UHGV virus genome: UHGV-0148165
DNA length: 64,000 bases
Source: a virus
Strand: one strand, 5' to 3'
Positions 42,212-42,995 of this stretch are shown piece after piece. Position numbers and translations under genes: made by a program. Every line of letters starts with the position of its first letter. The first letter of the stretch is position 1. The notes under the pieces were generated by a model. The model did not search any database. It was not told the origin of the DNA and worked only from the letters and a program-made list of their open reading frames with translations.

Positions 42212-42792
42212 TGATTAAATTGGTATTCGCTTATTCTCCAACTAAAACGGTCGAAGGCTTTAATGAATTAGCATTCGGTTTAGGTGATGGTTTACCATGG
42301 GGACGAATTAAAAAGGACCTCCAGAATTTTAAAGCTCGTACCGAAGGTACAATTATGATTATGGGTGCTAAAACGTTCCAGTCATTATCTACATTACTTC
42401 CCGGTCGTAGCCATATTGTGGTGTGTGACCTTGAGCGTGATTATCCTGTAACTAAAGACGGCGATTTAGCACATTTCTATATTACTTGGGAGCAATATAT
42501 AACTTACATTTCTGGCGGCGAAATTCAAGTGTCAAGCCCTAATGTACCATTCGAGACTATGCTTGATCAGAATTCCAAAGTAAGTGTAATTGGCGGGCCT
42601 GCTCTGTTATATGCTGCGTTACCTTATGCGGATGAAGTAGTTGTTTCTCGCATCGTTAAAAGGCATCGTGTTAATTCAACGGTTCAATTAGATGCAAGTT
42701 TTCTTGATGATATAAGCAAGCGTGAAATGGTTGAAACGCATTGGTATAAAATAGATGAAGTAACAACCCTTACGGAATCAGTATATAAATGA
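42211..42792 (+). CDS. frd: dihydrofolate reductase, 193 aa
   Basis: DHFR motifs [14 protein letters not shown]; length matches T4 Frd. Confidence 0.9.
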
Positions 42793-42995
42793 GCAATAAA
42801 TTAAAAGTTAAGGATGTTCCTAATGCTATGGCCCTTTTTATTTGTCGGCAGATGCATCAAGGGCCTATGACACCAAAACAATATCTTAAAGGTGAGCGTT
42901 CTTTAGGATTTACTCGCAAAGCAAAACAAATGGTTAAATTAGGATATAAGCCTAACTTTGCCAAATATCCTTCTACATATTCTTGGATGAACTAA
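42789..42995 (+). CDS. hypothetical basic protein, 68 aa, inserted between frd and td
   Basis: ATGA overlap with frd stop and TAATG overlap with td start. Confidence 0.45.

Follow-up and report, generated by a model that had tools for sequence, protein, structure and literature searches.

Between the dihydrofolate reductase gene frd and the thymidylate synthase gene td of virus genome UHGV-0148165 lies a small ORF, called here ORF68. The DNA analysed is a stretch of 64,000 nt (the window), and all positions refer to it. The original prediction described a 207-nt ORF with a basic 68-aa product, which overlaps the frd stop through ATGA and the td start through TAATG. This description proved correct in each respect (42789..42995 on the plus strand; pI of the product 10.26). 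The locus contains the following features.

41966..42211 (+), ORF for an acidic 81-aa protein of PHROG 3183 ('unknown function'), between frd.1 and frd, with a TAATG overlap of its stop and the frd start
42211..42792 (+), frd (dihydrofolate reductase), 193 aa, 97% nucleotide identity with T4 frd
42789..42792 (+), ATGA, overlap of the ORF68 start and the frd stop; T4 uses this ATGA as td start and frd stop
42789..42995 (+), ORF68, ATG start, 207 nt including the stop codon, 68 aa, PHROG 9550
42993..42997 (+), TAATG, ORF68 stop and td start with one base in common
42995..43543 (+), td exon 1 (thymidylate synthase), by homology to T4 Td; in-frame stop at 43544-43546
43544..44556, td group I intron, with an intron ORF of 245 aa at 43675..44412 (+)
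around 44557..44871, td exon 2

The junctions of ORF68 with frd and td

At the upstream junction the ORF68 ATG (42789-42791) and the frd stop TGA (42790-42792) share two bases, and at the downstream junction the ORF68 TAA (42993-42995) is followed, after an overlap of one base, by the td ATG (42995-42997). The td start is placed at this ATG, from which the product (MKQYQ...) is homologous to T4 Td, rather than at the upstream TTG at 42983 given by the ORF finder; the end of exon 1 at 43543 is set from the in-frame stop and from the T4 td 5' splice site. The TAATG overlap is also present in JS98, Marfa, and Serratia phage 4S, while CIP9 has a GTGA overlap instead. No internal σ70-like promoter or terminator was found within ORF68.

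The original prediction stated that frd and td overlap directly in T4, and the T4 record (NC_000866) bears this out: frd occupies 145109..145690 and td extends to 145112, giving a 4-bp overlap with no gene between them. The window and T4 match without difference through ...GTATATAAATGA, and therefore ORF68 begins at the very ATG that serves T4 as the td start.

The neighboring features also deserve mention. The ORF of PHROG 3183 has 80/81 identity in T2; T4 has only a 72-bp gap at this site, and no tblastn match to the ORF was found in the T4 locus. T4 thus lacks the small gene that precedes frd here as well as the one that follows it. Within the td intron, the 245-aa ORF is annotated as the homing endonuclease I-TevI in T4 and in the matching phage records. 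No group I intron model was reported when 41500-45200 was scanned against Rfam at E<=0.1; the presumed cause is that the intron core is split by the endonuclease ORF.

Coding status and protein family of ORF68

The region is 100% identical in Shigella phage SHFML-26, where ORF68 is deposited as the hypothetical protein ANN86858.1, and the protein is 100% identical in dozens of sequenced Tequatroviruses. By tblastn, 238 phage records contain ORF68, with an identity of at least 95% in 134, and the profile of PHROG 9550 (labelled 'unknown function') matches its full length (E=1.3e-45, residues 1-68 aligned to positions 1-68 of 68). Because ORF68 is identical to deposited, annotated proteins and belongs to PHROG 9550, it was already known as an uncharacterised gene. 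The original prediction had called for an alignment of the junction across T4-like genomes and had held that the presence of the ORF in T4 and its relatives would speak against it; many relatives do carry ORF68, but T4 does not, so this objection applies only by half. ORF68 is a real, conserved phage gene, annotated already as a "hypothetical protein" in more than 100 T4-like phages.

Its labelling in GenBank is inconsistent across phage records. The label 'DUF4858' in phage Shinka (MZ502379) was rejected, there being no Pfam support for ORF68 (at E<=10) or for any of 24 family members, as was 'flagellar biosynthesis protein' in PYPS2T (MH809535) and vB_EcoM_P8 (PV390659), for which no flagellar model matched in Pfam or NCBIfam. 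In the records of JS98 (NC_010105), JS10 (EU863409), and Paracelsus (MZ501096) ORF68 is left unannotated. In the literature, neither the N-terminal peptide string of ORF68 nor 'phrog_9550' was found in any paper, and the frd-td locus is undiscussed in PMC2993671 and PMC12373910.

A short ORF that several records leave unannotated could be a chance reading frame in an AT-rich spacer, or the trace of a conserved RNA or regulatory element for td. Such an origin is extremely improbable. Pairwise comparisons by the Nei-Gojobori method among the window, JS98, Marfa, CIP9, and Serratia phage 4S gave dN/dS values of about 0.08-0.28 for ORF68 in every informative pair, which is comparable to frd and well below 1, as expected for purifying selection; in the distant pairs synonymous sites are near saturation. 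In addition, the family is full-length and includes homologs of 33-44% identity in unrelated phages. Nor does the RNA itself argue for a structured element: the fold of the ORF68 region (z=0.33) is no better than that of shuffled sequence, and no credible Rfam match was obtained. The one Rfam hit here, beta_tmRNA at 42690..42859 (+), scored only 15 bits, where the gathering score is 84 (E=0.089), and was judged a chance match. The conserved position in five T4-like genera, the low dN/dS, and the PHROG 9550 match together place ORF68 beyond chance.

The ORF68 product has a mass of 7.9 kDa and a pI of 10.26, with 13 K+R residues versus 2 D+E. When 1.84 billion representative proteins were searched exhaustively with the family profile, only 10 genuine clusters emerged, with lengths of 70-96 aa; the pI is 9.75-10.5 in all family members. 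The family alignment contains a conserved N-terminus, M(S/K)(N/G)xKxKV..xP, a conserved CR..HQ segment, and the motif KG..(S/T)(L/F)G...A..M..LGY.P followed by an aromatic-rich tail. A repetitive protein of 1402 aa (P0026) gave six profile matches, all to residues 9-29 of the ORF68 profile and to the motif NVPSALGLHVCHQG; these were rejected as spurious, and the protein, which resembles translated tandem-repeat DNA, was left out of the family alignments. The window holds no paralog of ORF68 elsewhere.

AlphaFold2, supplied with the family alignment, gives a small model of good confidence (pLDDT 83, pTM 0.59) and predicts helices at residues 13-24, 29-39, and 43-49, with a bridge that links the N- and C-terminal extensions. 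Consistent with the original prediction that ORF68 has no recognisable domain, no match was found in Pfam (at E<=10 for ORF68, and also for 24 family members), in NCBIfam (for ORF68), or among the PADLOC defence-system models (0 of 24 family members). The PDB likewise gave no sequence-profile match at E<=10 and no fold match.

Outside the T4-like phages, homologs are found in phAPEC8 (gp235) and other Phapecoctaviruses (about 43% identity) and in five metagenomic phage contigs. These distant homologs are embedded in extended stretches of small genes that have no annotation. One lineage has its homolog between a gene for a PIF1-type helicase and a DnaB-like gene, with an RNA ligase nearby; in another the homolog lies a few kb from a Tad2-like gene. 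No annotated function recurs among the neighbors of the distant homologs, and neither td nor a PHROG 1928 gene (see below) was ever found beside them in the Phapecoctaviruses or the five metagenomic contigs. Besides homolog P0024, one of these contigs (L009) has genes for a Tad2-like protein (PF11195) and for a member of the Phage_T4_Y05C family (1286..1669, minus strand; 6439..6882, plus strand). The content of this contig suggests a large T4-related phage with a block of accessory genes around the homolog.

A polymorphic slot between frd and td

A 601-nt query that spans the junction matches 570 phage records, which fall into three classes.

ORF68 allele: contiguous match of 601 bp; 136 records; for example this window and SHFML-26
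PHROG 1928 allele: about 810 bp; about 363 records at 90% identity or more; for example T2, RB14, RB51, RB9, RB68, and Bas35
Empty allele: 395 bp; the remaining records; for example T4 and Dhakavirus MX01

The frd-td junction is thus a polymorphic slot with three alleles, and ORF68 is an ordinary variable accessory gene. The flanks are conserved, and close relatives have alternative occupants or none, as in a variable accessory-gene slot. The direct frd/td overlap of T4 is a minority allele within T4's own genus, and the Dhakaviruses are split as well, with ORF68 present in JS98 and the slot empty in MX01. The original prediction spoke of a precise insertion. ORF68 is indeed extra relative to T4, and its overlaps are exact; it is not an unusual insertion, since 136 of the 570 records carry it and about 363 have the PHROG 1928 ORF in its place. 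Whether ORF68 was gained or lost, an 'insertion into the T4 arrangement' is not its natural description.

The alternative occupant is an ORF of 115 aa, present at 1713..2060 of the analysed loci of both phage T2 (L010) and phage WilhelmHis/Bas35 (L011). Its name in RB51 is 'RB32ORF229c', and in WilhelmHis/Bas35 it is called a 'putative homing endonuclease', with no Pfam or NCBIfam match. Seemingly there are two subtypes of PHROG 1928, and CIP9 has a tandem pair, one T2-like and one Marfa-like. The spacer of 45 nt just before td in T2 holds TGTATTATAAT, which resembles an extended -10 element.

ORF68 immediately precedes td in Dhakavirus, Marfavirus, Kanagawavirus, and Serratia phage 4S, and in every T4-like genome examined (five genera) it adjoins td with a stop/start overlap. 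The gene order frd - PHROG 1928 - ORF68 - td is seen in Marfavirus, Kanagawavirus, and Serratia phage 4S: Klebsiella phage Marfa and Serratia phage 4S have a PHROG 1928 ORF between frd and ORF68, and Enterobacter phage CIP9 has two. In its fullest form the locus thus reads frd - PHROG 1928 (one or two copies) - ORF68 - td. The Tequatroviruses and Dhakaviruses have one of the two genes or neither, and PHROG 1928 alongside ORF68 was seen in none of the Tequatrovirus and Dhakavirus matches inspected, all of which are single-piece. A two-gene module of PHROG 1928 and PHROG 9550 was not found outside the T4-like phages.

The DNA identity between the window and Dhakavirus JS98 is 98.6% in ORF68, 77.2% in frd, and 77.7% in td exon 1, and dS is 0.05 in ORF68 versus more than 1 in the flanks. 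In 40-nt windows frd is 95-100% T4/T2-like throughout, while from the start of ORF68 the sequence is JS98-like (29/30 to 39/40). The first 40 nt of td match JS98 at 39/40 positions and T4 at 34/40, and beyond about 50 nt td is T4-like again. The result is a JS98-like patch within an otherwise T4/T2-like background:

42789..43045 (+), recombination patch of about 255 bp, 98.5% identical to JS98, comprising ORF68 and the first ~50 nt of td; 3' boundary uncertain by ~6 nt

Because the patch reaches into td, the N-terminus of Td reads QFLIKDIL in the window and in JS98 but QDLIKDIF in T4 and T2. The identity of 98.5% in the patch, set against 77% in the flanks, argues for cassette exchange by homologous recombination. 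The comparison indicates that a patch of about 255 bp with ORF68 in it has passed between Tequatrovirus and Dhakavirus. Its ends lie within the 3' end of frd and the 5' end of td, which are conserved between the genera, and homologous recombination between co-infecting phages would be the simplest mechanism. In Marfa and CIP9, synonymous divergence in ORF68 is also below that of the flanks (pS of 0.53-0.60 versus 0.68-0.87, based on few sites), which is compatible with repeated exchange.

The constant position beside td raises the possibility that ORF68 is a dedicated partner of Td or of dNTP synthesis, such as a small subunit, chaperone, or regulator that is kept at a fixed ratio through coupling. 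In the five genera the two genes remain adjoined by overlapping stop and start codons even when other ORFs lie between frd and ORF68, and the exchanged patch includes the first ~50 nt of td. However, T4, T2, and most Tequatroviruses have a functional Td without ORF68, and the homologs in the Phapecoctaviruses and the five metagenomic contigs do not adjoin td or any gene of nucleotide metabolism. Furthermore, the N-terminal variants of Td do not track the presence of ORF68 across genera, and synteny together with recombination through homologous flanks would in itself predict a conserved position. Consequently, a role as Td partner is quite unlikely.

The sharp discontinuity in identity across genera and the patchy distribution within them could instead reflect a selfish or mobile cassette, with ORF68 either part of a homing system or a hitch-hiker on the I-TevI homing of the td intron, which lies about 550 bp downstream. 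The intron-encoded I-TevI ORF (43675..44412) is nearby, and the alternative occupant of the slot bears the 'putative homing endonuclease' label in WilhelmHis. That label, however, has no Pfam support, and the 68-aa product of ORF68 itself has no nuclease motif or family match. Linkage of ORF68 to the td intron and I-TevI was rejected, as all four combinations of presence and absence exist: ORF68 occurs without the intron in JS98, Sf21, and EPIMRB01, and the intron without ORF68 in T4 and T6. Finally, the strong purifying selection on ORF68 points to a function useful to the phage. A selfish cassette is thus very improbable.

A proposed role and its relation to known systems

ORF68 is probably a genuine, translated, and dispensable accessory gene that is coupled within the frd-td operon and carried between phages by recombination, and it may have a host-directed binding product. 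The parts of this reading differ in strength. That a real accessory gene occupies a polymorphic, recombining slot is very probable. A specific binding or host-directed role is a tentative suggestion from charge, size, and genomic neighborhood. Dispensability for this type of phage follows from T4 and T2, which are without ORF68.

In T4, frd and td are expressed before replication. As part of such a prereplicative nucleotide-precursor operon, ORF68 would be co-transcribed with frd and td. Its start would occupy the initiation context of T4 td, and ribosomes that terminate at frd would translate it; these ribosomes would then be passed from ORF68 to td through TAATG by translational coupling. 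ORF68 would move between co-infecting phages through recombination in its flanks, with no activity of its own. Early in infection, its predicted three-helix, basic product may bind nucleic acid or an acidic partner of the host or phage, and binding of this kind would serve a host-takeover or counter-defence type of function, with an advantage limited to certain hosts. The conserved positive charge and small helical body of ORF68 fit such a binder, of which there are many among early proteins for host takeover and counter-defence.

A bolder version of this proposal is that ORF68 is the first of a novel class of effectors, small and basic and with an unseen fold, which neutralises a specific host defence or a host factor associated with nucleic acid and has spread among large lytic phages of enterobacteria. 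This is rather unlikely. If it were true, the frd-td slot, together with the PHROG 1928 gene, would be a swap-in locus for host-range determinants, and if ORF68 is a counter-defence or host-takeover factor, the isogenic-like series of alleles (T4, T2, and the ORF68 type) would ease its testing.

For now, ORF68 adds to the many small, uncharacterised genes of the variable periphery in T4-like phages and is already deposited. It is not expected to surprise the specialist, although the three-allele slot, the short cross-genus patch, and a fold without assignment are of mild interest. The locus is of modest use as a clear natural case of an accessory slot with three alleles (empty, ORF68, and PHROG 1928), of a cassette of less than 300 bp exchanged between two phage genera via conserved flanking genes, and of a gene joined into an operon with putative translational coupling preserved on both sides.

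Among known proteins, ORF68 differs in nothing from PHROG 9550, of which it is a member; it has size, charge, and motifs in common with ANN86858.1 of SHFML-26, YP_009850431.1 of Marfa, and YP_007348396.1 (gp235) of phAPEC8. It resembles the Cro/Xis-like helix-turn-helix DNA-binding proteins in being small and strongly basic, with three short predicted helices. The free-standing homing endonucleases Seg and Mob have GIY-YIG or HNH domains; ORF68 has no match to a nuclease family in Pfam or NCBIfam, and with 68 aa and three short helices it is too small for such domains. The PHROG 1928 ORF is like ORF68 in its use of the same frd-td slot and in having no assigned function, but it is unrelated in sequence, and in T2 it has spacers of its own (20 nt after frd and 45 nt before td) where ORF68 has overlaps.

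Variable accessory-gene slots between the core genes of T4-related phages, the 'plastic periphery', have reportedly been described by Comeau and Krisch and by Petrov and Karam. The frd-td slot is like these in that it has small uncharacterised ORFs, with alternative or no occupants in close relatives, and in its exchange by recombination; its flanks are conserved genes of nucleotide metabolism. Unlike the 'plastic periphery' regions of several kilobases, it holds just one to three genes, and unlike the occupants of such slots, ORF68 is tied into its operon by start/stop overlaps on both sides.
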